The notes under the pieces are model-generated. The model saw only the letters and a program-made list of their open reading frames with translations, searched no databases and was not told where the DNA came from. Shown in pieces: positions 41,968-64,000 of a stretch of DNA of 64,000 nucleotides; the first letter of the stretch is position 1, and the number at the start of each line of letters is the position of its first letter. Origin of the DNA: a virus; IMG/VR virus record IMGVR_UViG_3300006341_000010, positions 2,407 to 66,406 of that record. One strand, 5' to 3'. A program made the translations under genes and the position numbers.

Positions 41968-41993
41968 CCTTTAAAGAGGCGGAGGATAGTCCC

Positions 41994-43523
41994 ATTTGTG
42001 GTTTAGTAGGTGTAGCTGGTAACTTAATCCAGCGTGATGTAACTTTGTTTGGTCAGATGCTTTTAGCAGATGTGTTCCGTGGTAAACATGCAACAGGTGT
42101 AATGCGAGTAGCCCATAATGGTCAGGCAATGTCTGTTCAACATGCCAAGTTAGCTATGTCATCAAAGTATTTCTTAGACTTACCTGTGTATGATTTAATC
42201 ACTGGCATTTCTCAATCATTAACAATCCTTGCAGGTCATAACCGCCATGCAACTAAAGGTGCATCAGACAATCATAAGTTTGCTCACCCATTTAAGCATG
42301 GTCACATTACCTTAATGCACAATGGTTCTTTAACTTCTCACTACAACCTAACACGTGGTACTAGTGAAACATTTACAGTAGACAGTGAAGCTATTTGTTT
42401 TGCAATGTCTCGTGGTGAAGCACATGAAGTTATCCCTCAGCTTAACGGTGCCTTTGCTTTAGTGTGGGTTGATGAAGAAAAACAAACCCTTAACTTCGTA
42501 AGAAACTCAGAGCGCCCACTCCACCTAGCATTTGATGAACGCTTAGGTAAGATCTACTGGGCATCAGAAAAAGATATGCTTAAGTGGTTACTTGATCGTG
42601 ACATGACGATGGCATCAGGTGGTTTCCGTTATGATCGTACAGAAGAACTGCCGGTGGGTGAGATCTGGTCTTTCCCAATCAACCAAAATTCTGTAGATCT
42701 TAAGGGCTGCGAGGTGACCTCAGTGGAAGTCTCTAAGCCCTTTACGTACACTGGCTATGGCAATTACGTCGGGGGTACTAACACAAAAAAAAGTCAGGGC
42801 GCAAACAACGCAAGCGCCAGCGCAAACAAGACAAGCGTCACCACAGGAAACTCAAACACCGGTAGTGTTAACAAAACTACTGGGACTAGCACTACTGGTA
42901 ACAGCAGTACTGGAATCCCTTGCCATGCAGCAGTGGATAACAGCGTTGGTACTGAGTACTTGCTTACTCCTAGTCTGGAAACGACTCTGAAAGCTTCATC
43001 TTCTAAGGTGTTAGACCATCTAGGTCGTCAGCAGATTGGTGTTCGCTCTTACATTAATGCCGCTGACCAGCAAGCAACTGAGTTAGATAAGCGAATCCCT
43101 TTCTTCATCAAGAGCTTTGCTGTATATCCATCATCTGTTAACAAAGAACCTGAGAAAATATTGGGTTGTTTGAAAGGGAAGATGGTTGAGTATCCTTTCT
43201 CTGATATTATTATCCATGCTTGTACTAAGATGAAGTTTGATGAGTTGGTAGCTGAAGGTAACTCTATTGGTAGCTCTTACATTCAAGGCATCAAAGCTGA
43301 AGATACAGCTAAGCAGTTAGGTAAGTTGTCTGACTCACAAGCTAAGCTATTGTTTGATGTTGTCCTACGTGGTGATACTATTAAGCAGGTAGAAGAAGTA
43401 ACTAACTACTTGTTTGATATGAATGAGATCCCTTCTTCATGGAAAGTATCTCAAGAACCTGAGGTCGTTAAGGGCATTGAGTTAGTAGTTGAGCAAGAGA
43501 AAGAACTAGCTCAAAAGAAGTAA
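41994..43523 (+). CDS. Class II glutamine amidotransferase (Ntn hydrolase), AUU start
   Basis: ATT-TGT-GGT = (M)CGLVGVAG 8 nt after GGAGG; RGKHATG, GHNRHAT, AHPF, HNGSL, VDSE, GAFALVW, RNSERPL. Confidence 0.9.
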   Translation: MCGLVGVAGNLIQRDVTLFGQMLLADVFRGKHATGVMRVAHNGQAMSVQHAKLAMSSKYFLDLPVYDLITGISQSLTILAGHNRHATKGASDNHKFAHPFKHGHITLMHNGSLTSHYNLTRGTSETFTVDSEAICFAMSRGEAHEVIPQLNGAFALVWVDEEKQTLNFVRNSERPLHLAFDERLGKIYWASEKDMLKWLLDRDMTMASGGFRYDRTEELPVGEIWSFPINQNSVDLKGCEVTSVEVSKPFTYTGYGNYVGGTNTKKSQGANNASASANKTSVTTGNSNTGSVNKTTGTSTTGNSSTGIPCHAAVDNSVGTEYLLTPSLETTLKASSSKVLDHLGRQQIGVRSYINAADQQATELDKRIPFFIKSFAVYPSSVNKEPEKILGCLKGKMVEYPFSDIIIHACTKMKFDELVAEGNSIGSSYIQGIKAEDTAKQLGKLSDSQAKLLFDVVLRGDTIKQVEEVTNYLFDMNEIPSSWKVSQEPEVVKGIELVVEQEKELAQKK

Positions 43524-43677
43524 TAACGATGGGGTATACTGTTGCGAGTGTGATGCACCATTCACCCGTGAAGATGCCCTGTCGTTTGGTATGTACCTAG
43601 ACGGAGATAAGAAAGAATTTATCTGTGACGTCTGTGTATTCTATGAAAAGAATCCTGAGATGGAGAAAAAATTATGA
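43510..43677 (+). CDS. Start-less Zn-ribbon reading frame (possible frameshift extension of GATase)
   Basis: SNNDGVYCCECDAPF...FICDVCVFYEKNPEMEKKL*; stop forms ATGA overlap with next gene. Confidence 0.5.
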   Translation, partial: LKRSNNDGVYCCECDAPFTREDALSFGMYLDGDKKEFICDVCVFYEKNPEMEKKL

Positions 43678-44498
43678 GTACTATCATAGTAGATGGTGTA
43701 GCAGTTGACTTAACTGTTGGGTGTGATCCTGAGCTGTTCGTAAAGGACGAGCAGGGTCTTGTTTCAGCACATGGTATGGTTGAAGGAACTAAAGAAGCTC
43801 CTAGTCCAGTAGAGAAAGGGGCTATCCAAGTTGACGGAATGGCCTTGGAGTTCAACATCAACCCAGCTGAAAGCCGTGAGGTGTTTATCGTTAATACGAT
43901 GTCTGTCATGCAAGACTTAGTAAAGAAAATTCCTCAGGGTCATACCCTAGTAGTAGCCCCAACTGCTAACTTTGGTAAAGCTTTAATTGACCAGCAGCCT
44001 GATGAAGCTAAAGAGCTAGGTTGCTCTGCTGATTACAATGCATACATGCAAGGTGCAGCTAACCCTAAGCCCAACGGCGACGTTGATTTCCGTACGGCGG
44101 GTGGTCATATCCATGTGGGCTTCACTGAGAACGCTCACTCATCAGATCAGGAACACCAAGCTATCTGTCAAGAGATCATTAAGATGATGGACTTAATGCT
44201 CGGTGTTCCTTCAGTCCTTTTAGATGACGACAAGAAACGTCGTAGTCTTTACGGTGCTGCTGGTGCTTACCGCTCTAAGCCTTATGGTGTAGAGTATCGT
44301 TCGCTTAGTAACTTCTGGTTAAAGAGCAAGGAGTACATTGGTTGGGTCTATGACCAGACTGAAGTTACTATCAAGAAAGTCTTGGAAGGTTTAGATGTTT
44401 CGGAAGATGCTGCTAAAATCCAAAGAGTTATTAACAGCTCTGATAAACAAGGAGCTAAAGAACTCATTCGTAAATACAACATTCAGTTACCAGTTTAG
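43674..44498 (+). CDS. phiEco32-like COOH-NH2 ligase type 2
   Basis: VGCDPELFV, QVDGMALEFN, ELGCSADYNAY, RTAGGHIHVG, RRSLYGAAG..R.KPYGVEYRSLSNFW. Confidence 0.9.
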   Translation: MSTIIVDGVAVDLTVGCDPELFVKDEQGLVSAHGMVEGTKEAPSPVEKGAIQVDGMALEFNINPAESREVFIVNTMSVMQDLVKKIPQGHTLVVAPTANFGKALIDQQPDEAKELGCSADYNAYMQGAANPKPNGDVDFRTAGGHIHVGFTENAHSSDQEHQAICQEIIKMMDLMLGVPSVLLDDDKKRRSLYGAAGAYRSKPYGVEYRSLSNFWLKSKEYIGWVYDQTEVTIKKVLEGLDVSEDAAKIQRVINSSDKQGAKELIRKYNIQLPV

Positions 44499-44508
44499 GA
44501 GGAAGATA

Positions 44509-45150
44509 ATGCCTGATATTAATATTAGTTCACGCTACCGTGGTTCAGGTGACATCTCTATGCGTCACAATGATACCTATGTAGGTGTAGTACAACGTGA
44601 TGGTTCGGTTACTCCTTATCGTTGTCATGGTGCTAGTAGCTCAGATAGTATCTCTATCTCTAAGGTCCAAGGGTTCCAAGGGGATAGTGATATGAACATC
44701 GGACTGAATGATGATCGCTTGTTACTTGATCGTCCTCAGTGTGGTTATGCTACCCTAAGGAATGTTGATGGTGATAAGACAGCAGTGTACTTCTGTACTC
44801 GTGCCCTTCGCCAGTACAAACGTTCTTTAGTTTACTCACACCTACATCGTACCCCTGCTGGTAGTGGCCGAGGGGTGGACTATAGTGACCGTGGGAACTT
44901 AGGGGCTGCCTTGTTTACATTCTTCAATGATGTATATTCTTCTGTTGAGAATGCAGTGAATGAACTCAAAGACACTGACGCTGTTTCAATAGCGATTGGT
45001 AGTAAGTTTGCCTTAGCTAAGCATGAAGATAAAGGTATTGTCCTTTACTACAAGCGAGCAATAGTAGGTTGGTATGATCTTGAAGAAGAACAAGTCAAGT
45101 TAGTTAGTAGTTATCAACATCTTCAAGAACAATTAGAGGAGATCTCTTGA
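44509..45150 (+). CDS. Hypothetical protein of the ligase cluster
   Basis: AGGAGG SD places the start at ATG 44509 (MPDINIS). Confidence 0.7.
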   Translation: MPDINISSRYRGSGDISMRHNDTYVGVVQRDGSVTPYRCHGASSSDSISISKVQGFQGDSDMNIGLNDDRLLLDRPQCGYATLRNVDGDKTAVYFCTRALRQYKRSLVYSHLHRTPAGSGRGVDYSDRGNLGAALFTFFNDVYSSVENAVNELKDTDAVSIAIGSKFALAKHEDKGIVLYYKRAIVGWYDLEEEQVKLVSSYQHLQEQLEEIS

Positions 45151-46052
45151 TGTTAGTCAGTGAAATTATTGGACGTAGTTCAGGTGGTTTAGCAGGTGAG
45201 TTGGGCTTAATGGTATCAGGTACTAAGGTAGGGGTAGAGATTGAGATCCAAACAAACTCTAGCTCCCATCCAGTGGATCGCTCAGAGTATTGGCGACCAG
45301 TATCTGAGGGTTCAGTACAGGGCTTTGAGATTGTTCTACGTGAACCTCAAGGCGGTACTGATTTAGTATCAGCTCTTGAGGAAGCTGAATCATTGGTTGA
45401 TAGAATGGGTGGGAATGAGAAGTTCCCTGAGATGACTTCAGTCCATGTCCATGTTGATGTCCGTGACATGACAGAGATCCAGTTGTTTAACTTCCTCACA
45501 TTAGCAATCATGTTCGAGCCTGTGTTATACAATTATGTAGAACCACATCGAAACAAGAACCACTTCTGTTTGCCAATGTCTGATGCTGATGATGTACTTG
45601 GTCGCTTGTATCGTTTGGTATCTCGCTACCGTCAGCATGGTAACATCAACCGTGATCAGTTACGATCTCTATTCTCACCAGATGAAGTTAAGTATGCAGG
45701 TATTAACTTAAGTTCCATCCCGCACTACGGTTCCCTTGAGTTCCGAATGCACCATGGTACTGCAAGTTCTACCGCGTTGATCCGATGGATTAATGTCCTG
45801 TTAAAGATGCATCAGTATGCTATGGAACCTAACCGTTCCCCTAATAACATCCTTGATACTAAGATTGAGGTTGGGATTGAAACAATATTCCAACAAGTCC
45901 TTGGCCAATACTCAGGTGTGTTATCATACGAAGGCGTTGACGATGATATATTAGATGGGATCAGGAATGCACAGGACTTCGTTGCACTGTTCGCTCAGCC
46001 TGCGGGACGTAATGTCCTACAGGATATCCCTAATCAAACCCTAGGAGGATAA
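45147..46052 (+). CDS. Putative amidoligase (COOH-NH2 ligase family)
   Basis: VGVEIEI, EGSV.GFE, TSVHVHVDV, KYAGINL, GSLEFRMHHGT. Confidence 0.88.
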   Translation: MMLVSEIIGRSSGGLAGELGLMVSGTKVGVEIEIQTNSSSHPVDRSEYWRPVSEGSVQGFEIVLREPQGGTDLVSALEEAESLVDRMGGNEKFPEMTSVHVHVDVRDMTEIQLFNFLTLAIMFEPVLYNYVEPHRNKNHFCLPMSDADDVLGRLYRLVSRYRQHGNINRDQLRSLFSPDEVKYAGINLSSIPHYGSLEFRMHHGTASSTALIRWINVLLKMHQYAMEPNRSPNNILDTKIEVGIETIFQQVLGQYSGVLSYEGVDDDILDGIRNAQDFVALFAQPAGRNVLQDIPNQTLGG

Positions 46053-46053
46053 T

Positions 46054-47904: not shown

Positions 47905-47919
47905 TAACTAGGAGGTAAT

Positions 47920-48156
47920 ATTAATTACAACTTCTCAAATCTATCCTTGAAACAGATAGTAGGGTTGTTATGGGCAGACCAGAACCTGAGAGACTTTGGT
48001 GATCGTCATAGATTACTAACCTCTCAGGAAAGGAATAGCTGCTTTGCAATCCTAGGGAATCTTTCCGATGAAGAACTTGAAAGACTTCAAGGTGAGACCC
48101 CGTACTTCACATTGCTTGATTTACATCAGGCAAACCTAGACAACGTTACACTTTAA
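47920..48156 (+). CDS. Hypothetical protein (probable AUU start)
   Basis: AGGAGGTAAT-ATT in frame with the 47947 ORF. Confidence 0.55.
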   Translation: MNYNFSNLSLKQIVGLLWADQNLRDFGDRHRLLTSQERNSCFAILGNLSDEELERLQGETPYFTLLDLHQANLDNVTL

Positions 48157-48197: not shown

Positions 48198-48650
48198 ATG
48201 GCAAAGACAATCAAACAACGCGGTTCAGTTTTATTCTCAGCAATTGCAGACTTCGCTAAATTCAATAATCAATCAACAGGTAAGTATGAATTAGTACTTA
48301 CATTGAATGACGATCAGCGAGCAGATGCAGAGAGTAATGGTGTAGGAATCAACGTTAAAGATTATCAAGGTCAAGAACAAGCAACTGCTAAGTTTAAATC
48401 TAAGTTCAAGCTAGAGAAAGGCATGGTAGTTGATCGCTTTAAGAATCCTTATGTGGATGCTGAAGGTAACATCAAGGAAATCCCTCGTGGTTCTGAAGTT
48501 GTTGTGTTCGCTACATCTAAGCCATACTCATTCGCTGGTAAGACAGGGGTTACAAACTACCTGAATGCTATCCAGATTATTGAGGAAGCTAACTCTATTG
48601 ACTTCGAAGATTTCTCTGAGGAGTTAGAGGTGCAAGACGTTGAGTTCTAA
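48198..48650 (+). CDS. ssDNA-binding protein (T7 gp2.5-like)
   Basis: GKYELVL, IPRGSEV, YLNAIQII, acidic tail ending in F. Confidence 0.8.
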   Translation: MAKTIKQRGSVLFSAIADFAKFNNQSTGKYELVLTLNDDQRADAESNGVGINVKDYQGQEQATAKFKSKFKLEKGMVVDRFKNPYVDAEGNIKEIPRGSEVVVFATSKPYSFAGKTGVTNYLNAIQIIEEANSIDFEDFSEELEVQDVEF

Positions 48651-48843
48651 ACCAACGTATGAGGAGCTAGAGAGGGATCATGCGTTCCTCTTTGCTGCCT
48701 ACAAGCAAACCAAACAAAAACTAGAGGAGCTTGAAGGAGAGTTCATTAAACTAGAGAGCTTGGTGGAGCATATCCATCAGGCCTCAGGCTCTTACATTCA
48801 AGCTAAACTTGATAGTGTACCTGAAGCGGAGGATAAAGATTAG
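48640..48843 (+). CDS. Small coiled-coil protein
   Basis: 67 aa, GAGG SD, TTG start. Confidence 0.6.
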   Translation: MSSKPTYEELERDHAFLFAAYKQTKQKLEELEGEFIKLESLVEHIHQASGSYIQAKLDSVPEAEDKD

Positions 48844-50551
48844 TAACTTTCTAGGATCAGGGTTCCCATGCCCTGATTGTGGTAGCTCTAACGCTGTGGC
48901 AGAATATCACAATGGTATGTTCTGTCATAAGTGTCAGAGTAAATTCCCTAGCAAGGAAAAGTATTTCCAAGCTACTGGTGTAGCCCCTAAGCACCCTCAA
49001 GTAAACGATGGTGATCAGGCTATGCCTATGGACTCAGAGATTAAACAATCAACTCAGAGATTCAATATCCCTGAGGAGTTCGAGGGATCTAAACAAAAGC
49101 ATCGGGGTATTCAACCTGATGTATTGAACCGATATGGGATTAGGTTCAACGCAAGTGGTGACATGTTCACTATGATTAGGGACAAGGAAGGGAATCCATC
49201 AGGCGCTCAGATCTGTAAGGGCCAAAGGGATGAGAAAGGTAGGAAGAAGATTACAGCTATGGGTGATGTCAAAGATAAGGCTCTTATCGGACAACACTTA
49301 GCAGGTGGTAATGGTAATAGGTTAGTTATTACAGAGGGTTATCTAGATGCCTGTTCGGCTAGCATGATGCTAAATGGTAGATACCCTGTAGTCTCTGTCC
49401 TAAATGGTACAGGCTCAGCAGCTAAAGACTTTAAGAATAACATTGATTTCATTGAGCAGTATGATGAAGTTGTTATTTGTTTTGATAATGATAAACCCGG
49501 TCGTGAAGCAGCTAAAGAATGTGCTAACTTAATTACTCCCGGCAAAGCTAAGATAGTACCATTGGCTAAGTACAAGGATGCCAATGACTTCCTAGTCCAA
49601 GGACAGGTAAAAGAATTTGTTAAGTATTTCTGGGAGGCTAAGCGTCATCAGCCTGACGGGATCATAAACCTAGCAGATATCTTTGACCAAGTGTTAGAGG
49701 AAGATGAGAAACCTTCAACCCCTTATCCTTGGGAAGGCCTGAATGAAATGCTAGATGGTATCAGGACATCTGAATTAGTTACAATAACGTCTGGTTCAGG
49801 TATGGGTAAGTCTAGTATCGTACGAGAATTAGAGTATCACCTATTAACTACAACAGAAGATAAGATAGGGATCTTGGCATTAGAAGAAACACCAGTAAGA
49901 ACCACTCAAGGTATTATGGGTATCCATTGTAACTCTCAGTTGCATAGGAAAAAGTACAGGGATTTAGTTGACCCTAAGACCTATAAGGAAGCGTTCATGG
50001 CAACCGCAGGAACAGGTAGGTTAGTTGCTTATGATCACTTCGGTTCTACTTCTGGTGATAACTTGATTGCCCAGATCAGGTATATGATTAAAGGCTTAGG
50101 CTGTAAGCATGTAGTCTTAGATCACTTATCAATTGTAGTTAGTTCTCAAGAAGATGGTGGAGATGAGAGGAAGAACATCGACGCTATCATGACTAAGCTT
50201 AGGCAGCTAGTGCAAGAGACTGATGTCTCTATGTTCCTAGTGTCACACTTACGGAGAGCTTCAGGGGATAAGGGCCATGAGAATGGTGCTGAAGTTTCCC
50301 TTGCACAACTCCGAGGATCACAAGCTATTGCTCAGTTGAGTGATGCAGTGATTGCATTAGAGCGTGACCAGCAAGCAGAGAATGAGAAAGAAGCCAACCT
50401 TACCCGTCTCCGTGTACTTAAGTCTAGGTACACAGGACAGACAGGGATTGCAACCCACCTGTGGTTTGATCCTGATACTGGTAGGATGGTAGAGATTGGA
50501 GATACTGAAAAGGTTAAGGAGTTTTTAGCACCAGATGTTGAGGAATTTTAA
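48839..50551 (+). CDS. DNA primase/helicase (T7 gp4-like), probable AUU start
   Basis: CPDCGS...CHKC Zn finger, ITEGYLD/FDNDKPG TOPRIM, SGSGMGKS, VLDHLS, LRGSQAIAQLSD. Confidence 0.95.
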   Translation: MSNFLGSGFPCPDCGSSNAVAEYHNGMFCHKCQSKFPSKEKYFQATGVAPKHPQVNDGDQAMPMDSEIKQSTQRFNIPEEFEGSKQKHRGIQPDVLNRYGIRFNASGDMFTMIRDKEGNPSGAQICKGQRDEKGRKKITAMGDVKDKALIGQHLAGGNGNRLVITEGYLDACSASMMLNGRYPVVSVLNGTGSAAKDFKNNIDFIEQYDEVVICFDNDKPGREAAKECANLITPGKAKIVPLAKYKDANDFLVQGQVKEFVKYFWEAKRHQPDGIINLADIFDQVLEEDEKPSTPYPWEGLNEMLDGIRTSELVTITSGSGMGKSSIVRELEYHLLTTTEDKIGILALEETPVRTTQGIMGIHCNSQLHRKKYRDLVDPKTYKEAFMATAGTGRLVAYDHFGSTSGDNLIAQIRYMIKGLGCKHVVLDHLSIVVSSQEDGGDERKNIDAIMTKLRQLVQETDVSMFLVSHLRRASGDKGHENGAEVSLAQLRGSQAIAQLSDAVIALERDQQAENEKEANLTRLRVLKSRYTGQTGIATHLWFDPDTGRMVEIGDTEKVKEFLAPDVEEF

Positions 50552-50553: not shown

Positions 50554-52623
50554 ATGGACGAAGATCGTTTAGAAGAATTGATAGCAAGAGCGACGCAACT
50601 CAGAGAGCACCACCGGTCGATGGAGGAGTTCTTCACTAGTCAAGGCACTGAATATGTCACTTGGTCGTTCCCTGCTGAGGCAGATCTCCATGAAGAACTA
50701 TGTGATGAGGACTTAATATGAGTAATGTAGTTAGGGTAATGTATTATGGTGCCTATTCCCGAGAGGTTGTAGGTGTTCCTTACTTTAATTCAGGCAGAGA
50801 TCGGATTGATGAAGGAGACTGCGTGACTGAAGGGAAGGAAAACGATGGGTGGATTAACTTCCACCAAGACCCTGAGCACCTTTTAGGCAGTGGTATACCT
50901 TGTAGATCTAATTGTCAATGGGAGTCTCTGATATGAGTGATGTCAGGCGGGTAGTGTTCCGGGACGTGCAGATAGTAACGGAAGATTTTAATCACAACAT
51001 AGTTAATGGCCACACTATAAGACATGATGGTCTTACACTTTTCTGTGATTCTGATTGGGGTAGCTTAAATTATAGTGACGACCCTATGTATCTAATAGGC
51101 TCTAGATCAACGAAGTGGGGCTGCCAGTGGGAGGACTTAGTATGAGCGATGTTATATCTATTATGTATAGGCAAACAAACTATATAGGTCCTGTTGATGA
51201 AGTGATCCATAGGAATAACGGTAGACATAAGGTAGAGGGATTCCATACATTACTAGCTTCAGGCGAGGAACGTCATGATGATGGTCAAATATTTTTCTAC
51301 ATGGATGATAGATACCTACTAAGAACAGGCACAATATGTCCTTATAGTGGAACTCAATGGGAGTATCTGATATGAAAGTCATGGCAGTTTATGAGAAACA
51401 AACTACTTACCTTGGGGATCAGATAGACCATTGGATGTCAGGGATCTTAGCTTACACCAATACTACCTTATCACAATTCACCTTGTTAGATTGTATAGGC
51501 AATCATGCTATCTGTAGTAATAGTTTCTTAGTTGAGAGACCTGTTAACACAAACGTAATAGTGGAGGAATTAGTATGATTATTCAGGAAGATAAAGTAAT
51601 TGCTGTTAAGAGACTTGATCAATCAATCCCCTCTAGGAGTTTCATTTATCATAGAGCTTATGATGTCCAACATTTTATAGCTAGTTGTGATGAAGATGAT
51701 GAGACAAGGACATTGAAGAAAGACTCATCCCTTAACATGTTTAATTATGTGGAGGAATTGATATGACCATAGTATCAGTAGATGTAGAAGTAGATCTAGA
51801 TGACATTGACTTCGATGTTCTTAAGGACTATGTGTTAGAGGATCTAACGGACGATGAGATCTGTAGGGAAAGGGACTTGTATTCTGGGGAAGACTATGAA
51901 AGTCTTGAAGAAGAACTTGAGGATCTTAGAGGTCTAATAGCAGAGCTTCGGAGAGATATGTCAAACATGGAGAGGTTAGAGTAATGAAGGTTTTCTTAGT
52001 TAAGTGGAGGGATAGATTTATAGTAGGGGAGGCGGAGAGAGATGTAGAAATATACAGTGAAACTTTCCAGTACTATAATATCCGAGGGGAAGGGGTAGAC
52101 TATCAGACCGGTAGGATCTTAAACTCTAATGATGCCTTATGCTTCGACTATAGCTGGTTTGATAGATTCCCTGATCCCTTTTGGTATGCAGAGAGGTTGG
52201 TATGATATTAAGGAACGGTGATGTTGTTTCATTCTATGATGGTAATACTTATTATTACCCTAATAAACCCTTAGTCATAGAAGATTCTAGATCAGGAAAC
52301 CCAGAGTTTTGCTCAGGGATTGCTGATGAAGATAACATAGCAGTTACTTCAGGCATGCTCAGGGATAGGGAAGAAGCCCAGAGGCGTTGGCTTAATTCAA
52401 GTGATAGTATGATAGAGTATTTAATATGATAGTAGAAGATGGTGATGTGATAGCTCTTATAGGCTTTCATGGTAATAGGTTCTTTAGGGACTTAGAAGGA
52501 CAAGCGTTTGAAGTAATTGGATATAACCTAGATTTATTTAGGTTCTCATTTCAAGGCCATAGTTACCCTTGGGCGCGAGATTCTAGAACGTGGCGAGTAG
52601 GAGGTTGTGAATTATTAATTTAG
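50554..52623 (+). CDS. Array of ten translationally coupled small proteins (starts 50554, 50718, 50933, 51142, 51372, 51575, 51763, 51984, 52202, 52426)
   Basis: 55-77 aa each, joined by ATGA/TAATG overlaps; nine end in E-x-L-I/V. Confidence 0.75.
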
Positions 52624-52639
52624 AGGAGGTAATAGAAGC

Positions 52640-54520
52640 TTGCGGTTAAGCTTTGATATAGAAGGTAACGGTCTATTAGATCAAGTTACTACAATCCACT
52701 GTATTGTTACAGAGGATATTGATACAGGTGAATGCAGAGAGTTTGAGCCTCATGAGATTGAAGAAGGTGTTAAGCATTTAATGCAAGCATCTACTCTCAT
52801 AGGACATAACATTCTTGGCTATGACTTACCTGCTATCAAGAAACTTTATGGTGAGGAGTTTAAAGGTGAGACCTTAGATACCTTAGTATTATCTAGGCTA
52901 GCTAGGCCTGACAGATCTTTACACCCTCAGTGCCCTGCGAAAGTATGGGATGAACACAACCAGAAAGATAAAGCTGTTGGCCCACATACCCTTATGAACT
53001 TAGGGTACTACGCTGGTTTGAACAAAGGTGACTTTGGATCTGAAGCAGGGTGGGAGTATTACAGCAAAGAGATGTTAGAGTATTGTAAGCAGGATGTATT
53101 AGTTACAACACGGATATATAACTATCTCAAGAAAGAACTTCAGGGCTTTAGTGATCAATGTATTTTACTTGAACACCAATTCAATTATAGAATCCAACAA
53201 CAGATGGAACATGGTTGGTTCTTTGACATTGATAATGCTATGGAGTTAGAAGCAGAGTTAACTGAGAAGATGATGGAGCTAGAGGATGAGGTTCATAAGA
53301 CCTTTAAACCCATGGCTAAGTTCATTAGAGAGATACAACCAAGGGTGGTCAAGTCCGGTGGGTTATCTTCTGTTGGACTTAAGTTCCTAGAGAACTACCA
53401 AAACGTAGTACCTATCCCTGATTGGATTGATGGGGAGTATGGTGTTGAATACATCAATGGTGAATTCTCAAGGATTGATTGGGTTGAATTTAATCTAGGT
53501 TCAAGACAACAAATTGCTGATCAGTTACTCATGAGAGGATGGAAACCTAAAGAGTATACCGAGAATGGAAACATAATCGTAAACGAAAAGGTGTTGGGAT
53601 CTATTGCTTCTAAGTTTGAGGAAGCTAAGTTGCTTGCTGATTACTTCATGATCTCAAAGAAAAAGTCTATGGTATCTTCATGGATTGAGAAATACAATAG
53701 TGATACCGGTAGGATCCATGGGTATGTGAATACCTTAGGTGCTGCAACAAGACGTTGTACCCACTCCGGCCCTAACCTAGCACAAGTACCTGCGTCTAAG
53801 ACAGACAAAGAGGGGCACTTGGTCTTTGGGTTTGAGGGAGGTTATGGCGCTGACTGTAGGAAGTTATTCACTGTACCTCGTGGTTATAAGCAGGTAGGTT
53901 GTGATGCTAGTGGCTTAGAGCTTAGATGCTTAGCCCACTATATGAACGACAAAGAATACACTGACTTAATCTTACACGGTGACATCCACTCATATAACCA
54001 AAAGGCTGCTGGTTTACCTACCCGAAACAACGCAAAGACTTTCATCTATGGTTTCCTATATGGAGCTGGTGATGCTAAGATCGGAGAGATTGTTAATGGT
54101 ACAGCTAAAGACGGTAAGAGATTAAAGACAGCGTTCCTTAATTCCCTGCCGAGTCTTAAGAAGCTGAAGGAAGGTGTAGCAGTAGCAGCAACAAGAGGTT
54201 GGTTGAAGTCAATTGATGGTAGTAAGATCAGGATTAAATCTGAACATGCTGCATTAAACTTCTTATTGCAATCAGCAGGTGCTATTGTTATGAAGCAATG
54301 GCTCGTGTTAGTCTGTGAACAGGCAGACAAAGAACAATTGGACTATCATCCCGTTGGTAATATCCATGATGAAGGCCAATTCGAAGTAGCAGATAAGGAT
54401 GTTAAAAGGTTCTGTGAGATCTGTGAATCATCTATGAATAAGGCTGGTGAAATGCTAGGCTTCCGTTGTCAGATTGATGGCGAGGCTATGGTAGGTTCAT
54501 CGTGGGCAGCGACGCATTGA
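52640..54520 (+). CDS. Family A DNA polymerase (T7 gp5-like)
   Basis: FDIEGNG, GHNILGYD, DASGLELRCLAHY, RNNAKTFIYGFLYG, NIHDE. Confidence 0.95.
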   Translation: MRLSFDIEGNGLLDQVTTIHCIVTEDIDTGECREFEPHEIEEGVKHLMQASTLIGHNILGYDLPAIKKLYGEEFKGETLDTLVLSRLARPDRSLHPQCPAKVWDEHNQKDKAVGPHTLMNLGYYAGLNKGDFGSEAGWEYYSKEMLEYCKQDVLVTTRIYNYLKKELQGFSDQCILLEHQFNYRIQQQMEHGWFFDIDNAMELEAELTEKMMELEDEVHKTFKPMAKFIREIQPRVVKSGGLSSVGLKFLENYQNVVPIPDWIDGEYGVEYINGEFSRIDWVEFNLGSRQQIADQLLMRGWKPKEYTENGNIIVNEKVLGSIASKFEEAKLLADYFMISKKKSMVSSWIEKYNSDTGRIHGYVNTLGAATRRCTHSGPNLAQVPASKTDKEGHLVFGFEGGYGADCRKLFTVPRGYKQVGCDASGLELRCLAHYMNDKEYTDLILHGDIHSYNQKAAGLPTRNNAKTFIYGFLYGAGDAKIGEIVNGTAKDGKRLKTAFLNSLPSLKKLKEGVAVAATRGWLKSIDGSKIRIKSEHAALNFLLQSAGAIVMKQWLVLVCEQADKEQLDYHPVGNIHDEGQFEVADKDVKRFCEICESSMNKAGEMLGFRCQIDGEAMVGSSWAATH

Positions 54521-54598: not shown

Positions 54599-55018
54599 AT
54601 GCAGAATAATCATTTAACAGGAATGGCTTCTGAGTATAAAGTAGCTGAGCATTATACTAGAGAAGGCTATGCCGTTTACTGGACTATGATGTCTCAATCT
54701 AGGGACGACATAGTAATAAGGAAAGGCAATGAGTTCACTAGGGTACAGGTGAAGACCGGTACTTGGGTTCAGTCTGGTAAGTATAAATATTTACAATGTA
54801 GACTCAGGTCTGACAGAAGAAACGGAGGGACGTATGCCCCTTACACTCTTGAAGACTGTGACGTAGTAGTTATAGTTGAAGGGGATAGGCTATGGGAAAT
54901 ACCTGTAGCATGTGTTGCTGAAAGAACTAACATAACCTTGGATACTACTAACCCTACACCGAAAGCTAGTCAGAAAGATTACAACCCTGACGACTGGCTA
55001 GTAACTAACGGGAGGTAA
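54599..55018 (+). CDS. PD-(D/E)XK endonuclease (group I intron-associated type)
   Basis: G...E...GY.V...D.....RVQVKT. Confidence 0.75.
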   Translation: MQNNHLTGMASEYKVAEHYTREGYAVYWTMMSQSRDDIVIRKGNEFTRVQVKTGTWVQSGKYKYLQCRLRSDRRNGGTYAPYTLEDCDVVVIVEGDRLWEIPVACVAERTNITLDTTNPTPKASQKDYNPDDWLVTNGR

Positions 55019-55020
55019 CA

Positions 55021-55410
55021 ATTAAAACTGGAACAACTAATGAGCTTAAGGCTATGAGTTACTATAGTTCTAAGGGGTATGATATTTATATCCCTGTAGA
55101 CTCTAGTAGGATAGACTTCATTGCTCATAAGGACGAGGAACTATTAAAGATCCAAGTTAAAACTTGTTCAAAGAGGAGATACAAGGACACAGAATATCGT
55201 GTTGCAATCTTATCTTCTCGTAGAGGTAACGGTAACGTTGGCAACTATAAGTTGTCTGAGATAGATGAGTGCTTTGTCGTTGATAAAGATGCAGCTTGGA
55301 GGATTCCATTCAAAGCTGTGTACCCTAACATCTCAGTAATGCTAGATTCAAATAGGAAAGAGTACAAGCCTAAGCATAATCTTCCAGTGGAAGACTGGAG
55401 GGTGTACTAA
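55021..55410 (+). CDS. Second PD-(D/E)XK endonuclease, AUU start
   Basis: (M)KTGTTNELKAMSYYSSKGYDI...IDFI...KIQVKT. Confidence 0.75.
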   Translation: MKTGTTNELKAMSYYSSKGYDIYIPVDSSRIDFIAHKDEELLKIQVKTCSKRRYKDTEYRVAILSSRRGNGNVGNYKLSEIDECFVVDKDAAWRIPFKAVYPNISVMLDSNRKEYKPKHNLPVEDWRVY

Positions 55411-56297
55411 TTCTTAGAGTAGCTATATTGGATGCAGATATCGCAGTGTATCATGTATCAATTTCATGTGAACGTGAATCAAGACTGGAGGTAGTCAAAG
55501 AGACTATGGACTTATACATCAAGAACTGGCTATCATGTGCTGGGGCTGATGAGTATGTAGGTTATATAACAGAGTCGAAAGCTAACTTCAGAATACAACG
55601 TGCTTCTACTTGGCCTTATAAGGGTCAAAGGAAGAAAGCTAAACCCAAATGGTACTTGGCGATGCGAGAGTATGTCCAAGAACAATGGGGGTTTCAGAAT
55701 GTTATTGGGATTGAGGCCGATGATGCCTTGACTATAGCAGCTGAGAAACTTAAAGCTGAGGGTAAGGAGCCAGTGATTGTGACAGAGGATAAAGATCTCT
55801 TACAATACCCTGCTCTCCATTACAACCCTAACAAATCACATAATGTGTTTAGGATCTCAGAGGCTGAGGGTCACTATAACCTATGGCATCAAGTCATAAC
55901 AGGTGATAGGACTGATAACATTCCCGGTGTGTCACATGCCATTACCGAAACTAGGACAGGGACTTACAATAGATCTATCTCCGAGAGTGATTTACTTCCC
56001 GAGGATAAGATTAAATTGTTTAAGAAATATCCTAGGCAAGAACAGTATGGTAAATCCAGTGCAGCTAAATACTTAGAACAATTTCCACCTGAGGAATATC
56101 CCCTCAGGGTCTGGGAGTTATATGTAGATAAGTATGAGGACTTAGAGGATGAAGGTTCCTATGGATATGGGGACTTAAGATTCCATGAGACCTTTGATTT
56201 AATCTACATGTTAGTCAAAGAACCTGAAGGGGTTGAGGTCTTGGTAGAACCTAAGAAACCTCCAGTCCCTGAGGGAATTAAATTTTTAGATTTTTAA
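55410..56297 (+). CDS. 5'-3' exonuclease (T7 gp6-like), AUU start
   Basis: (M)LRVAILDADI, NFR, YKGQR, EADD, DKDLLQ, GDRTDNIPG. Confidence 0.9.
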   Translation: MLRVAILDADIAVYHVSISCERESRLEVVKETMDLYIKNWLSCAGADEYVGYITESKANFRIQRASTWPYKGQRKKAKPKWYLAMREYVQEQWGFQNVIGIEADDALTIAAEKLKAEGKEPVIVTEDKDLLQYPALHYNPNKSHNVFRISEAEGHYNLWHQVITGDRTDNIPGVSHAITETRTGTYNRSISESDLLPEDKIKLFKKYPRQEQYGKSSAAKYLEQFPPEEYPLRVWELYVDKYEDLEDEGSYGYGDLRFHETFDLIYMLVKEPEGVEVLVEPKKPPVPEGIKFLDF

Positions 56298-58173: not shown

Positions 58174-58453
58174 AGCAGTAGTAATTAATTTTAGTTGTGT
58201 GTTTAATTATGCTAAACGTGAGTTTGGTATTGAATGGAATGCATGTTGTGAATTGTTCCACGATTCAGGCTACTTCGAGTACCCTAGGTGCCATGAGGTA
58301 GACTTATGCTTTGATGGTGATGAAGATACCCTCTCTAAGGAAGACATCTTAGCAATTGATGATAGTTATTCTAAAGCTAAGGTGATATTCTTTAAGTACT
58401 TAGAGACACAAGATATTCCTAAGGGCTTTGCTGTTATGGTGGATAATGACTGA
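58166..58453 (+). CDS. Hypothetical protein
   Basis: 95 aa, AAGGA SD. Confidence 0.6.
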   Translation: MNKAVVINFSCVFNYAKREFGIEWNACCELFHDSGYFEYPRCHEVDLCFDGDEDTLSKEDILAIDDSYSKAKVIFFKYLETQDIPKGFAVMVDND

Positions 58454-58510: not shown

Positions 58511-58864
58511 GTGGGGCAGCCTATTAGGATTAGGAGCTATTGCATGTGTGATGTATGTGTTAAGTTAAAGAAAGAACAACAGAAAGAACCGGTGTCTATG
58601 TCACCATCAGACGCTATGAAGATTAACAAAGCCATACAGTTAGGTAAGTATGACAAGGTTATCATCGGTTCTACTGCGGTAGGTACGAAGCAGGAAGTTA
58701 TTGTAGATGTCTATGATGTCTTACGAGCATTTAATGTGACAGACCCTGCCCTTGCCCATGGCATTAAGAAAGCCTTATGCCCGGGACAGCGTGGGTCTAA
58801 AGGTCCTAAGCAGGATATTGATGAAGCTATTAAGTCCTTGGAGAAATTCAAAGAGGTAGTGTAA
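58511..58864 (+). CDS. Conserved phage protein (DUF3310-like)
   Basis: DVYDVLRAFNVTDPALAHGIKKALCPGQRGSK...DIDEAI. Confidence 0.65.
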   Translation: MGQPIRIRSYCMCDVCVKLKKEQQKEPVSMSPSDAMKINKAIQLGKYDKVIIGSTAVGTKQEVIVDVYDVLRAFNVTDPALAHGIKKALCPGQRGSKGPKQDIDEAIKSLEKFKEVV

Positions 58865-59086: not shown

Positions 59087-59488
59087 TTGTCATTAGAACA
59101 ACAGGTAATTCAATTCAACGAGACATACAAACCAGATCAACGAAACCTAGTAGCTGCAATCCCAGATCCTGAGGGGATGCAAGCGTGGGTATCTATTGTA
59201 GGTGAGGAGTTCCAAGAACTTCATGAAGCCTATGAGGCTGGTGATATTGTCCAATACTATGATGCCTGTATTGATGTTATCTATGCGATGGCACAACAGA
59301 TGAACCTATATGGTTTCCCTATAGACCTAGGGTTACGTGAGGTTCAACGTTCAAACATGTCGAAGCTAGATGAGGATGGTAAGCCTATCATTCGTGAGGA
59401 TGGTAAGGTTCTTAAGGGCCCTAACTTTAGTGAGCCTGATTTCAAGAAGATCTTGGAGGATCAAGTTGAAAACAATAGTACATGTTAA
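59087..59488 (+). CDS. MazG-like NTP pyrophosphohydrolase
   Basis: EEFQEL..A...DACID, EVQRSNMSK, REDGKVLKGPN; TTG start after AAGGAG. Confidence 0.85.
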   Translation: MSLEQQVIQFNETYKPDQRNLVAAIPDPEGMQAWVSIVGEEFQELHEAYEAGDIVQYYDACIDVIYAMAQQMNLYGFPIDLGLREVQRSNMSKLDEDGKPIIREDGKVLKGPNFSEPDFKKILEDQVENNSTC

Positions 59489-59699
59489 TCAGCATGTGAT
59501 CAAGAAGAACAGGAAGGATGGGACTCAAGATCCTGTCCTTACCTGTAAGACCTATAAGGATAATAGGTATGGGATGGAAGCAATCATAAAGGATGATCAA
59601 GGTAAGGAAGTCGGTAGGTTTATCTATAGCCCTGACAAACCTTTATCTTGTGGAGCCCATGTATGGTTTGAAACAAGGAATAGAGTTGAAGTTATCTAA
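59466..59699 (+). CDS. Conserved phage hypothetical protein
   Basis: GGAGG SD, TTG start; KTIVHVNQHVI...PDKPLSCGAHVWFET. Confidence 0.7.
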   Translation: MKTIVHVNQHVIKKNRKDGTQDPVLTCKTYKDNRYGMEAIIKDDQGKEVGRFIYSPDKPLSCGAHVWFETRNRVEVI

Positions 59700-60006
59700 G
59701 CTTAAGCATAGGAAAGCTAGGCTCGACCGGAACATTAGAGGTTGTTTATATGTAGCATACCATCGTAGATTAAAGAAGTACTACGTTGGTGTTACATCTA
59801 AATCATTTAATGAACGGTACGAGAGGAGAGATCCTAAGCACCACTTCTCGAATGCATTTTATAAAGAGCCATGTGCCTTTGACATATGGATTTATAAGTT
59901 CAATAACATTGAGAATGCATACAGGATGGAAAAGAAACTGGTAACTTGGAAGGAAGTTAACAGTGGTAAGTATTATAATAAGATTCCCGGAGGTAGGAAT
60001 GACTAA
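59686..60006 (+). CDS. GIY-YIG endonuclease
   Basis: GCLYVAY...YYVGVT...ER...E...YN. Confidence 0.7.
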   Translation: MKLSKLKHRKARLDRNIRGCLYVAYHRRLKKYYVGVTSKSFNERYERRDPKHHFSNAFYKEPCAFDIWIYKFNNIENAYRMEKKLVTWKEVNSGKYYNKIPGGRND

Positions 60007-60154: not shown

Positions 60155-60365
60155 AGATTCTAAATCAATGATAAAGGTTACTTTTGATGATGGATATAGT
60201 TCCTTGTTTTTCCATGATGAATATCTAGATGATGTCTCAGCTAAAGAAATAGCAGAGATTAGGGTGAGAGAGCTTCAACTTCTAAGTGATCGTAGTTTAG
60301 AGATAGATAAAGTTAAACACACTAATATAAAACCATTAGATAAACTCAAAGGAGAACAATCATAG
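60141..60365 (+). CDS. Hypothetical protein
   Basis: MSVNKDSK..., GAGGGG SD. Confidence 0.55.
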   Translation: MSVNKDSKSMIKVTFDDGYSSLFFHDEYLDDVSAKEIAEIRVRELQLLSDRSLEIDKVKHTNIKPLDKLKGEQS

Positions 60366-61021
60366 AACAGTCAGTTAAGTTAGTAGGTAAATCAGTACCA
60401 GTACTTGAGAACCTTAAAGACCTAAACGAACTCTTAGCCTACCAAGCTAAGGTGTCAAACCTTGAGACTCAAGACGATATGACAAGAGCACAACGCCTGT
60501 TAAAGTATTGTGCGGAGCATGGTCACTGGTCTGTATTTGAAATGGGTAATATCAACTTCGAGATTGTGACTACCCGTGACATTAGTCGACAGATCTTACG
60601 ACACCGGTCATTCAGTTTCCAAGAGTTCTCACAACGATACAGTGAAGCACAACGATTCACTATCCAACGTGAGGCTAGGTTACAGGATGAAACAAACAGG
60701 CAGAACTCTATTGACTCTGAGAGCGACCAGCTACAGGATCAATTCAAGGAACTGCAAGCTATGACCCTAGCAACCGCAGCAAGGGCATACCACTCAGCCT
60801 TATCAATGGGGATAGCTAAGGAATGTGCAAGATCTCTGTTACCTGAAGGCCTTACAGAATCTAAGATGTATATGAATGGGACTGTGAGATCATGGATCCA
60901 CTACATCAAGGTTAGGGAAGGTAATGGTACCCAGAAAGAACACATGCAATTAGCTAACATGATTAAGAAAATATTACTTGAAGAACTACCAGTACTTAAG
61001 GAGGTACTAGAAGATGAGTAA
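60362..61021 (+). CDS. thyX: Flavin-dependent thymidylate synthase, probable AUA start
   Basis: HWSVFE, RQILRHRSFSFQEFSQRY, ECARSLLP; N-terminal SVKLV strand lies upstream of the track's GTG. Confidence 0.95.
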   Translation: MEQSVKLVGKSVPVLENLKDLNELLAYQAKVSNLETQDDMTRAQRLLKYCAEHGHWSVFEMGNINFEIVTTRDISRQILRHRSFSFQEFSQRYSEAQRFTIQREARLQDETNRQNSIDSESDQLQDQFKELQAMTLATAARAYHSALSMGIAKECARSLLPEGLTESKMYMNGTVRSWIHYIKVREGNGTQKEHMQLANMIKKILLEELPVLKEVLEDE

Positions 61022-61581: not shown

Positions 61582-63414
61582 TTGTTTAAGATTGAAACAC
61601 ATGATTTCAACTGGTTGACGGAGGAGGCTAAGACCCTCCTTCAAGACTACTATGTTCAGGATGGTGAGTCTATCCCTGAGTTATTCCAACGAGCAAGTAT
61701 CAGCTATTGCTTTGGTGATTATAAGTTAGCTGAAAGGATCTATGGGTACGTTAAGAACCAATGGTTCATGTTCTCATCCCCTATCCTTTCCAATGGTACC
61801 TTGCATGACTGGCCGCTGAAGAAAGATCCTTGGATTGGATCAAGGTTCAGGAGGAATCAACGTTGGTTATCTAAGCAAGAGAAACCACGAGGCTTACCTA
61901 TCAGTTGTTTCCTAAGCTATGTCCCTGATACTATTGAAGGACAGTTCGATGCTGACGAGGAGATGTCTAGATTATCAGTAGCAGGTGGTGGCGTAGGTCA
62001 GCACTTAGGTATGCGAGGGGTTACATCAAAGAGTCCCGGTGCTATCCCTTACGCTAAGAATGTAGATGCTAAGATCATGTACTACAAGCAAGGTGAAACC
62101 CGTAAGGGTGCAGTAGCTTGTTACTTAGATGTATCACACCCTGACATCCTTGAGTTCATAGGGATCAGGAAGCCATCAGGTGGTGACCCTAACCGGAAAG
62201 CATTTAATATCCACAACGCTGTGAACATCACTGATGATTTCATGGAAGCTGTAGCTAATGATTGGGATTGGGATCTTGTAGCCCCTAATAACTTTGAGGT
62301 CGTTGAGACCGTTAAGGCTAGGGTTATCTGGGAATCATTACTTGAGACTAGGTATAAGACAGGTGAACCTTACCTGAATAATATCTCAGCAGCTAATCGT
62401 AATTTGCCATTAGAGATGCAACGACAAGGACTTCAGATCCATGGTAGTAACCTCTGTAATGAGATCCACTTACCTACAGATAAAGATAGGACAGCAGTAT
62501 GTTGTTTATCTTCTGTTAACCTAGCTTACTATGATGACTGGGTTAGGACTGACATGGTTAAAGATTTAATTACATTCCTTGATAATGTTATTGAATACTT
62601 TATTACTATGGCTCCTAAGGAAATGCACAAGGCTGTATACTCAGCATTACGATCTCGTGACCTAGGCCTTGGGGCTATGGGTTGGCATGAGTACTTACAG
62701 AAGAATGACATCCCATTTGATAGCGGAGGCTTTAATAGTGCCATACAAAAGACTAATCAGTTGTTTAGTGAGATCAAACGACAAGCCGTACAGGCCACTA
62801 AAGCCTTGGCAAAGGTACGTGGCATTGCTCCTGATAGCTATATTCGCAGGCATAGAAATTGCCATCTACTGGCGATAGCTCCTAATGCCAATAGCTCCAT
62901 AATCCTAGGGACCTCGCCGTCCATAGAACCTTGGAAGTCTAATGGTTTCATGAGAAGGACTCGGGTTGGTAGTTACATGGTTAAGAACCCTACCTTAGAT
63001 AAGTACATTAAGGATAAGTTCCCTGAGAAGTATGAGGACTTATGGGATAGGATCATTAAGGCTGAAGGTTCAGTACAAGATATAGAGGAGTTCCCGGGTG
63101 ATATTAAACGTTGTCACAAGACAGCTGATGAGATACCACAAGAACATATCATTGTCCAAGGTAGACACAGGCAACAACATCTATGTCAAGGGCAATCCAT
63201 TAATGTATTCTTTAAGGCTGGCGAATCCAAAGCTAGGTTTAATTATATCCATGCAATGGCATTCGCACCGGCAATGGATGGAGTTCCTCTTAAAGGATTG
63301 TATTATACTAGAACCAAAGCCTTGAAGAAAGGTGAGGATATAGGGAAGCAGGTGGAGCGTGAGGCTCTTAAGGACTTCTCTGATGAACCAAATTGTATTA
63401 GTTGTGAGGGTTAA
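61582..63414 (+). CDS. nrdA: Ribonucleotide reductase class I alpha subunit
   Basis: FSSPILSN, ISCF, GGGVG, SNLCNEI, IAPNANSS, C-terminal CISCEG. Confidence 0.95.
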   Translation: MFKIETHDFNWLTEEAKTLLQDYYVQDGESIPELFQRASISYCFGDYKLAERIYGYVKNQWFMFSSPILSNGTLHDWPLKKDPWIGSRFRRNQRWLSKQEKPRGLPISCFLSYVPDTIEGQFDADEEMSRLSVAGGGVGQHLGMRGVTSKSPGAIPYAKNVDAKIMYYKQGETRKGAVACYLDVSHPDILEFIGIRKPSGGDPNRKAFNIHNAVNITDDFMEAVANDWDWDLVAPNNFEVVETVKARVIWESLLETRYKTGEPYLNNISAANRNLPLEMQRQGLQIHGSNLCNEIHLPTDKDRTAVCCLSSVNLAYYDDWVRTDMVKDLITFLDNVIEYFITMAPKEMHKAVYSALRSRDLGLGAMGWHEYLQKNDIPFDSGGFNSAIQKTNQLFSEIKRQAVQATKALAKVRGIAPDSYIRRHRNCHLLAIAPNANSSIILGTSPSIEPWKSNGFMRRTRVGSYMVKNPTLDKYIKDKFPEKYEDLWDRIIKAEGSVQDIEEFPGDIKRCHKTADEIPQEHIIVQGRHRQQHLCQGQSINVFFKAGESKARFNYIHAMAFAPAMDGVPLKGLYYTRTKALKKGEDIGKQVEREALKDFSDEPNCISCEG

Positions 63415-63418
63415 TTAG

Positions 63419-64000
63419 TTGAGCTTATTTGAAGCTAAAGAAACGTACAAGCCATTCAATTATGAGTGGGCAGTACAACGTGCTGAAATGCATGAGAAGA
63501 TTCACTGGGGTACTTGGGAGGTAGACCTCGGTGAAGATGTTAAAGACTGGAAGTCTAATAAGATGACTGATAAGGACAAGGATTTTATTACCCAAGTCCT
63601 TAGGTTATTCACTCAGTCTGACTGTCAGGTAGAGAATAACTACCTTGACTACCTCTTACCTAAGTTCAAGAATAATGAGATCAGGATGATGTACCAATCA
63701 TTCGCTAACCGTGAGGGTGAACACCAACGAGCATATGCCTTGTTGAATGATACCCTAGGTTTCCCTGACTCAGAGTATTCTACGTTCTTAGACTATGAAG
63801 CAATGGCTAACAAGATTGACTTCATGAAAGATATTGATGTCCACTCCCTGTCTGGTACTGGATTGGCACTGGCCAATTTCATTATGTCAGAGGGTGTATC
63901 ATTGTTTGGTTCATTCGCTATGCTCCTTAACTACCAGCGACGTGGCCTTATGAAAGTGATGTGTACTGTAGTTGAGTGGTCGATTAGGGATGAGTCAGAG
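63419..64000 (+). CDS. nrdB: Ribonucleotide reductase beta subunit (partial)
   Basis: MSLFEAKETYKPFNYEWA...HEKIHW...LFTQSD...REGEHQRAY...EGVSLFGSF...WSIRDE. Confidence 0.95.
   Translation, partial: MSLFEAKETYKPFNYEWAVQRAEMHEKIHWGTWEVDLGEDVKDWKSNKMTDKDKDFITQVLRLFTQSDCQVENNYLDYLLPKFKNNEIRMMYQSFANREGEHQRAYALLNDTLGFPDSEYSTFLDYEAMANKIDFMKDIDVHSLSGTGLALANFIMSEGVSLFGSFAMLLNYQRRGLMKVMCTVVEWSIRDESE

Follow-up and report, generated by a model that had tools for sequence, protein, structure and literature searches.

What does it mean for a virus to begin genes of its replication module with ATT or ATA? The question is raised by a 64,000-nucleotide stretch of viral DNA (the window: bases 2407–66406 of a 66,406-bp contig, IMG/VR record IMGVR_UViG_3300006341_000010, rated complete by CheckV), in which the first-pass annotation placed six such starts behind strong Shine–Dalgarno (SD) sequences and proposed either a timing switch acting through the proofreading of initiation factor 3 (IF3) or simple dosage damping. 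The minus strand of the window carries structural and packaging genes up to ~30 kb, the plus strand carries small early open reading frames (ORFs) from 31.5 to 41.1 kb, and from 41.1 kb to the window end lies a metabolism and replication module. The Pfam names in this module are gamma-glutamyl cyclotransferase-like, HNH, class-II glutamine amidotransferase, two amidoligases, ATP-grasp, primase/helicase, family-A polymerase, two PD-(D/E)XK nucleases, 5′-3′ exonuclease, endonuclease I, MazG-like, GIY-YIG, ThyX, lysozyme, NrdA, and NrdB. We consider at least five of the six ATT/ATA codons to be very probably genuine starts, and, on comparison of the genomes, the use of ATT, ATA, or ATC starts (together ATH, or AUH in RNA) is inherited within a clade of marine podophage-like genomes, each of roughly 65 kb. 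The reading that we favor, with a probability of about 0.6, is SD-compensated attenuation, which would fix a low dose of enzymes and of potentially toxic nucleases.

All six codons lie where the annotation had placed them (ATT at 41994, 47920, 48839, 55021, and 55410; ATA at 60362), each with a strong SD about 2–8 nt upstream. The SD/anti-SD duplexes span −8.7 to −11.7 kcal/mol, ending 2–7 nt before the start codon, with the anti-SD taken as the usual bacterial 16S 3′ end, which may differ from that of the host's own rRNA. In-frame stops precede the six codons at 41961 (TAA, as had been claimed for the amidotransferase), 47905 (TAA), 48752 (TAG, primase), 55006 (TAA), 55377 (TAA), and 60341 (TAA). 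At every site except that of the primase the stop is 4–10 codons upstream with no canonical codon before the ATH, which is thus the first start-like codon after the stop and stands ahead of the conserved residues (5/6 genes). Downstream, the first canonical codon follows only after 17 (41994), 9 (47920), 11 (55021), 6 (55410), or 30 (60362) codons and has a weak SD (dG +2.4 to −3.7). The primase has an in-frame TTG (48809) and GTG (48815) upstream of its ATT; these lack an SD (dG +0.1), relatives have stops in this region, and the CxxC zinc finger lies upstream of every downstream canonical codon. Three of the sites show the stop/start overlaps that had been described: TAATT (55408–12), ATTAG (48839–43), and ATAG (60362–65). 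Of 969 internal in-frame ATH codons, 20 (2.1%) stand behind an SD that reaches −8.7 kcal/mol at a spacing of 2–9; of the 26 ATH codons that lie more than two codons before the first canonical codon, 6 do so, in five genes (binomial P = 1.2e-5).

Aligning the starts with those of homologues, which the first-pass annotation had named as a check, extends the pattern beyond the window. Seven relatives were used: Pseudoalteromonas phage vB_PtuP_Slicky01 (OQ508958.1; L001), the nearest named phage and the only cultured member found; L003, a 19-kb IMG/VR fragment; G001, a whole 64.8-kb IMG/VR contig; and the metagenome loci L111, L112, L113 (from a 64-kb contig), and L115. Too distant for this set were CHOED and Aeromonas phage 1233 (primase ~43% identical, own RNA polymerase), which served as controls only. 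Over nine genes in up to eight genomes, 37 of 50 orthologous starts are ATH, and the rest are canonical at the same codon (7 ATG, 5 TTG, 1 GTG; Table 1). Many of the relatives' ATH starts are unambiguous because a stop lies 0–4 codons upstream, as in the L003 primase (TAG GGA GAT GAA GTA ATT), the Slicky01 polymerase (TAA ATT, with FDIE as residues 6–9), the G001 orthologue of o47920, a conserved 78-aa ORF (TAA CAA CAG ATC), and the L003 exonuclease (TGA TTT ATT); in o47920 of both L003 and G001 the in-frame stop is 2–3 codons upstream, so there is no alternative start. On these alignments the stretch from the ATH to the first canonical codon evolves as coding sequence: differences in these stretches fall 45/31/89 by codon position over 161 codon pairs (chi-square p = 6e-8; the ThyX pair is off register after codon 15, and the G001 primase was left out), and over the 11 codons that precede ATG 55054, orthologues of the second PD-(D/E)XK nuclease differ at third positions.

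The same alignments agree with the motif arguments of the annotation, which had required Cys as residue 2 of the amidotransferase, a G-x3-E motif shared between the PD-(D/E)XK paralogues, and AILDAD in the exonuclease. Cys1 is the nucleophile of class-II amidotransferases. The N-terminus of this protein (Pfam GATase_6 8.5e-16, GATase_7 4.3e-9; no match in a PDB sequence search) reads (M/I)-C-G in the window, L003, Slicky01, G001, L113, L115, and the locus L022, where the start is also ATG; the ATT of L115 stands behind the same GCGGAGGATAGTCC motif as that of the window. In the second PD-(D/E)XK nuclease the PDDEXK_5 profile match begins at residue 3. Canonical codons occupy the aligned position in other lineages, with ATG starting the exonuclease of L016–L019 and the primase of more distant relatives.

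The polymerase allows a comparison outside the clade. Among 80 IMG/VR loci whose polymerase is ~44–46% identical, 59 were scorable at the N-terminus, with 50 ATG, 4 TTG, 4 GTG, and 1 ATA start; the ATA one proved to be the L003 contig again. ATH starts are therefore found in 6/6 relatives (6/7 clade members including the window) versus 0/58 outgroups. A wider screen took ORFs 60 codons or longer and asked for a strong-SD ATH placed more than two codons ahead of the first canonical codon. On the clade's replication strand it matched 32 of 416 ORFs (13 per 100 kb), compared with 5/3582 and 11/3426 for the respective strands of 154 outgroup loci (1.58 Mb; 0.3 and 0.7 per 100 kb); for 32/416 versus 5/3582, Fisher p = 3e-27. 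The opposite strand of the clade gave two matches, both in G001 (L027–L030): plus-strand 25880, an ATC start with SD TAAGGAGGTGATCT for a tail-fibre-like protein on the structural strand, and plus-strand 37748, an ATT start with SD TAAGGAGGATATT in a homologue of the window gene 5611–5300, which has ATG in the window. The annotation's restriction of weak starts to middle and replication genes thus holds in the window and is not absolute in the clade, because G001 has these two structural-strand ATH starts. A further Slicky01 ORF, without a homologue in the window, has an apparent ATA start behind AAAGGAG.

Within the window, 83 curated genes were divided into early, structural, and module (41–64 kb) blocks. 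All 22 early genes start with ATG, and the 23 structural genes have 20 ATG, 2 GTG, and 1 doubtful TTG, so that the claim of uniform ATG use stood for the early genes and largely for the structural ones; neither block has any ATT or ATA. The 38 module genes have 24 ATG, 1 GTG, 7 TTG, 5 ATT, and 1 ATA. ATH starts are concentrated in the module (6/38 vs. 0/45 elsewhere, Fisher p = 0.007), and more so when TTG is added (13/38 vs. 1/45, p = 0.00016). The TTG starts reported for the polymerase, nrdA, nrdB, MazG-like, HNH, and GIY-YIG genes were all recovered, and a 67-aa ORF at 48640 joins them; L003 and L111 have their TTG at the matching codon, and that of L113 stands one codon upstream of the aligned site. 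The GIY-YIG TTG at 59686 aligns with the ATG start of orthologues (L113), and nrdA of Slicky01 likewise has TTG directly after an in-frame stop.

The recurrent layout is an extended SD, often GGAGG(A/T)AAT, with the ATH directly after it. The polymerase provides the only clade-versus-outgroup SD comparison that is free of ascertainment bias, and here six clade members have a median of −11.75 kcal/mol and 58 canonical-start outgroup orthologues one of −6.9 (p = 9e-5). No 11/12 or 12/12 sigma-70 match was found over ~44–64 kb or on the plus strand of the 41–64 kb module, and no terminator hairpin with more than five stem pairs on the plus strand of ~44–64 kb; the module therefore looks like long polycistronic RNA, on which translation would be the available control knob. 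Measured from the upstream stop, the six ATH starts fall at −5 to +26 nt, a distance that does not separate ATH from ATG genes, so translational coupling is compatible with the arrangement and not specific to it. Elsewhere, 12/12 sigma-70 consensus promoters were seen at 29841–29869 (−), 30826–30853 (+), and 37098–37126 (+), flanking the divergent early region, two of the three with an extended −10 TG.

Table 1. Genes of the module with ATT, ATA, or TTG starts in the window, and their starts in relatives (ATH counts include the window)
Gene	Span	Strand	Start region in the window	Starts in relatives	ATH
HNH endonuclease	41548..41967	+	TTG right after in-frame TAA; SD GGGAGG		
Class-II glutamine amidotransferase	41981..43523	+	SD GGAGG 41981–85; ATT 41994; Cys codon 41997; stop 43521–23	ATT L115; ATG L003, Slicky01, G001, L113	2/6
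Conserved 78-aa ORF, unknown function (o47920)	47910..48156	+	SD AGGAGG 47910–15; ATT 47920	ATA L003, L113; ATC G001, Slicky01, L115	6/6
67-aa ORF	48640..48843	+	TTG		
Primase/helicase	48828..50551	+	SD GGAGG 48828–32; ATT 48839 overlapping upstream stop (ATTAG)	ATT L003, L111, L115; ATC L113; ATA Slicky01; ATG G001	6/7
Family-A DNA polymerase	52622..54520	+	SD AGAGGAGGT; TTG 52640; Exo I motif FDIE residues 5–8	ATT Slicky01, G001; ATA L003, L111, L112, L113	6/7
Second PD-(D/E)XK nuclease paralogue (PDDEXK_b)	55010..55410	+	SD GGGAGG 55010–15; stop 55016–18; ATT 55021	ATT, ATC, ATA	6/6
5′-3′ exonuclease	55397..56297	+	SD GGAGG 55397–401; ATT 55410 overlapping upstream stop (TAATT)	ATT L003; ATC or ATT L112, L113; TTG Slicky01; GTG G001	4/6
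MazG-like pyrophosphohydrolase	59087..59488	+	TTG behind AAGGAG	ATT L112, L113; ATA or ATT Slicky01; ATG G001	3/5
GIY-YIG endonuclease (Pfam GIY-YIG match)	59686..60006	+	TTG		
ThyX thymidylate synthase	60349..61021	+	SD AAGGAG 60349–54; ATA 60362 overlapping upstream stop (ATAG)	ATA Slicky01; ATT L113; ATG G001	3/4
Ribonucleotide reductase large subunit (nrdA)	61582..63414	+	TTG one codon (AGA) after in-frame TAA		
Ribonucleotide reductase small subunit (nrdB)	63419..64000, runs off window	+	TTG right after in-frame TAG	TTG Slicky01; ATA G001	1/3

What needs explaining is the codons and SDs themselves, the orthology of the starts, their enrichment in this clade, and their bias toward the module. 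Under SD-compensated attenuation, ATT and ATA would be read as initiation codons by the initiator tRNA, each presented by an unusually strong, start-proximal SD inside a tightly packed, apparently promoter-poor module. The pairing of a weak start (ATH, likewise TTG) with an extended SD would give reliable but attenuated initiation, at roughly a tenth of AUG, and would set a low dose of the nucleases, primase/helicase, polymerase, ThyX, amidotransferase, and ribonucleotide reductase compared with the products of the early and structural genes, which start with ATG. Published outputs of AUU, AUA, and AUC are ~5–15% of AUG, with UUG similarly weak (PMC3592434, PMC5499595, PMC13009471): an E. coli reporter put both AUU and UUG 6–8 fold below AUG/GUG (PMC3592434), another study gave 7.5% of AUG for AUA and 5% for AUU/AUC (PMC5499595), and the non-canonical starts described in S. 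aureus all have an extended SD, are conserved, and work at ~10% of AUG (PMC13009471). Dosage damping had been the annotation's fallback, and it fits everything seen, including the stronger SDs, the interchange with TTG, GTG, and ATG, and the packed operons.

That the ATH codons are not starts at all, with initiation at downstream canonical codons or errors in the assembly, is hardly credible. A canonical TTG is close by in two genes (6 codons downstream in the exonuclease, 9 in o47920), but such codons have weak SDs and unconserved positions, and starting from them would cost the amidotransferase its Cys2, the primase its zinc finger, ThyX 30 conserved residues, and the relatives' polymerases their Exo I motif. 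The same trait appears in eight independent assemblies, and contigs from other samples, drawn from four DNA runs and used only to check these letters, show no change at any start codon they cover: X2, which differs from the window at 13 other places, covers 47920, 48839, 52640, 55021, and 55410; X5, from a second study, covers 48839 without change; and X4 covers 55410, with X4 and X5 spanning only parts of the stretch. We also rejected sequencing or assembly error, another genetic code, and a special tRNA, given the agreement of eight assemblies, the many ATG starts in the same genomes, and Arg-CCT as the sole tRNA, as well as a frameshift fusion to the upstream ORF in the overlap cases, where the SD stands at start spacing and orthologues have canonical codons at the same position.

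Nearly neutral decay seems unlikely to us, yet several findings would suit it. AT-biased mutation at 40% GC could have turned ATG into ATA or ATT where coupled, strong-SD genes tolerate the change, with the strengthening of the SD being compensatory; the orthologous start interchanges freely among ATT, ATA, ATC, TTG, GTG, and ATG, the amidotransferase has ATG in 4/6 genomes, no ATH start of the window is more than 26 nt away from an upstream stop, the SD is stronger where the codon is weak, and a rough count of third-position changes is compatible with neutrality. Persistence speaks the other way. Both o47920 and PDDEXK_b have ATH in 6/6 genomes, the polymerase and the primase each in 6/7 (the exceptions being the TTG polymerase of the window and the ATG primase of G001), and ATH is retained down to about 50–67% protein identity; the 154 outgroup loci, with a mean GC of 43% against 39–43% in the clade, are almost without ATH starts, and mutation pressure alone would not be expected to enrich them in one module. 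A switch tied to the state of infection is distinctly improbable: an early phage product, or infection itself, would relax IF3 proofreading, so that middle (and some late) genes with AUH or UUG starts would pass from poor to efficient translation, as a timer or a sensor of host state. Licensing might come from an early protein acting on IF3 by modification or sequestration, or else from a shifted IF3:ribosome or ppGpp state. IF3 does discriminate against non-canonical starts (PMC9723500), its overexpression lowers re-initiation (PMC2268962), T7-like kinases phosphorylate IF1, IF2, and IF3 and have been suggested to favor late mRNAs (PMC6375957), and in the window weak starts, found in 0/22 early genes, set in with the middle module. 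We nevertheless found no support for the switch proposed in the annotation, as no kinase, IF3-like, or translation-factor family appeared among 40 Pfam-scanned and 42 PHROG-scanned proteins, a weak negative because most early ORFs (22 in the block) match no family. ATG starts 24/38 middle genes and nearly all late ones, so there is no class-wide dependence on weak starts, and the two structural-strand ATH genes of G001 also sit poorly with such a switch. Still less probable is a sensor of host physiology, in which ppGpp or nutrient limitation depresses non-AUG starts and throttles replication-gene translation in starved hosts. In one study all mRNAs with non-AUG starts suffered severely under nutrient limitation and ppGpp (PMC5499595), the efficiency of the AUA start of ccpN rose from ~10% to ~30% in rich medium (PMC13009471), and the sequencing runs found to contain DNA of the window are marine plankton metagenomes, with no RNA run among those for 47800–56400; the idea is, however, extrapolated wholly from work on extracts of E. 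coli and on reporters in S. aureus, and the sequence offers nothing that separates it from plain attenuation.

Several points weigh against SD-compensated attenuation as we read it. SD medians within the window (−9.7 for ATH vs. −7.6 for ATG starts) form an ascertainment-biased comparison, because the ATH starts were partly picked by SD strength. Local mRNA structure over −30 to +33 shows no difference between ATH and ATG starts (p = 0.46) or between TTG and ATG starts (p = 0.16), and compensation by an open translation initiation region was dropped on that ground. For some relatives the start is ambiguous, a canonical codon being 3–6 codons away, namely the primase, o47920, and PDDEXK_b of Slicky01, the primase of L111, and MazG-like in three genomes (in its ATH cases an ATG is 4–6 codons downstream). 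One of the six Slicky01 screen matches is a false positive, antisense to a conserved packaging-region gene. The clade genomes are related, and L111 and L112 may be near-identical, so that the P values overstate independence. The turnover among ATT, ATA, and ATC, with only one change to ATG, does not depart significantly from neutral expectation on a rough count; the N-termini, the reduced output, and any selection for weak starts we infer from the sequences.

The class of mechanism proposed here is already known. In E. coli infC and pcnB an SD-led AUU likewise stands near the stop of the upstream cistron (infC junction UAA GGU AUU; for pcnB the source refers to Binns & Masters 2002; PMC3592434), and its inefficient initiation limits output. 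Both are, however, single genes of a host, and IF3, the product of infC, regulates infC itself, whereas the phage has ATH in 6/83 genes of a 66-kb genome and in the polymerase and primase across a clade. The ATH-initiated products here are the amidotransferase, primase/helicase, PD-(D/E)XK nuclease, 5′-3′ exonuclease, ThyX, and the unknown 78-aa protein, with no translation factor among them in the Pfam scan that would point to autoregulation of the infC type. S. aureus cvfC1 (AUU), ccpN (AUA), and infC (AUA) share the start-proximal extended SD and the conservation of both features (PMC13009471). That study names a handful of Ribo-Ret-validated sites (infC, cvfC1, ccpN, citZ) in a whole bacterial genome (PMC13009471), while in the phage such sites are far denser, the genes belong to a virus, and the starts are predicted from sequence. 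The T4 rIIB AUG-to-AUA mutant and the HB-3 hydrolase AUA/AUU/AUC constructs also gave roughly 5–15% of AUG (PMC5499595), but as laboratory mutants and constructs, unlike the natural, conserved, and genome-wide usage in this clade. The kinase gp0.7 of T7, which phosphorylates IF1, IF2, and IF3 (PMC6375957), is an earlier case of the kind of phage interference with initiation factors that the switch would need; no kinase homologue emerged from the Pfam and PHROG scans here, and T7 is not known to use AUH starts. No report of systematic ATT/ATA starts in phages was found in the literature searched. What appears to be new is a virus lineage that would use AUH for about 7% of its genes, including the polymerase and primase, and conserve it across genomes.

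Beside the amidotransferase, a conserved CxxC...CxxC zinc-ribbon ORF at 43510–43677 (+) opens in the +1 frame 14 nt before the amidotransferase stop and contains no ATG, GTG, TTG, or ATH before its first CxxC. This arrangement recurs in six of six clade genomes examined. The frame is +1 in L003, L113, and L115, where the 0-frame ends ..AAG AAG TAA or ..AAG AAG CAC TGA, and −1 in Slicky01 (0-frame end GCT AAA AAA AAG TAG) and G001 (TCA AAG TAG); only L113 (GTG/ATG) and L115 (TTG) offer a start codon. Fusion through recoding is one possibility for this ORF, an unknown kind of initiation another. The amidotransferase itself belongs to a phiEco32-like peptide/amidoligase cluster at 41137–47904 (+), comprising a GGACT cyclotransferase, the class-II amidotransferase, a COOH-NH2 ligase, an amidoligase_2, and an ATP-grasp protein, and kept in Slicky01 and other clade members. 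The single tRNA of the window, tRNA-Arg(CCT), lies at 36187–36263 (+), and a tRNA-Arg is likewise annotated in the early region of the Slicky01 record. Further along the module, the 117-aa product of 58511–58864 (+) matches phrog_2452 over its C-terminal half only (profile positions 115–214 of 235); the 95-aa ORF just upstream (58166–58453) might be the missing N-terminal half of a split or recoded gene.

For the study of initiation, the clade offers natural AUU, AUA, and AUC starts in core genes together with a cultured member, Slicky01 of Pseudoalteromonas tunicata, and because that member exists, IF3 proofreading, extended SDs, and coupling become testable during infection. For annotation, gene finders limited to ATG, GTG, and TTG cut the N-termini of these phages: in the GenBank record of Slicky01 the polymerase coding sequence (35410–37224, 604 aa) is 23 codons short of the ATT-initiated ORF and loses the Exo I motif, and the thymidylate synthase (29702–30244, 180 aa) is 41 codons short of an SD-led ATH start and loses conserved N-terminal residues. 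Similar truncations are likely in metagenomic protein catalogues. For the viruses themselves, the choice of start codon would be used, or at least tolerated, as a knob that sets expression at the level of a whole module.

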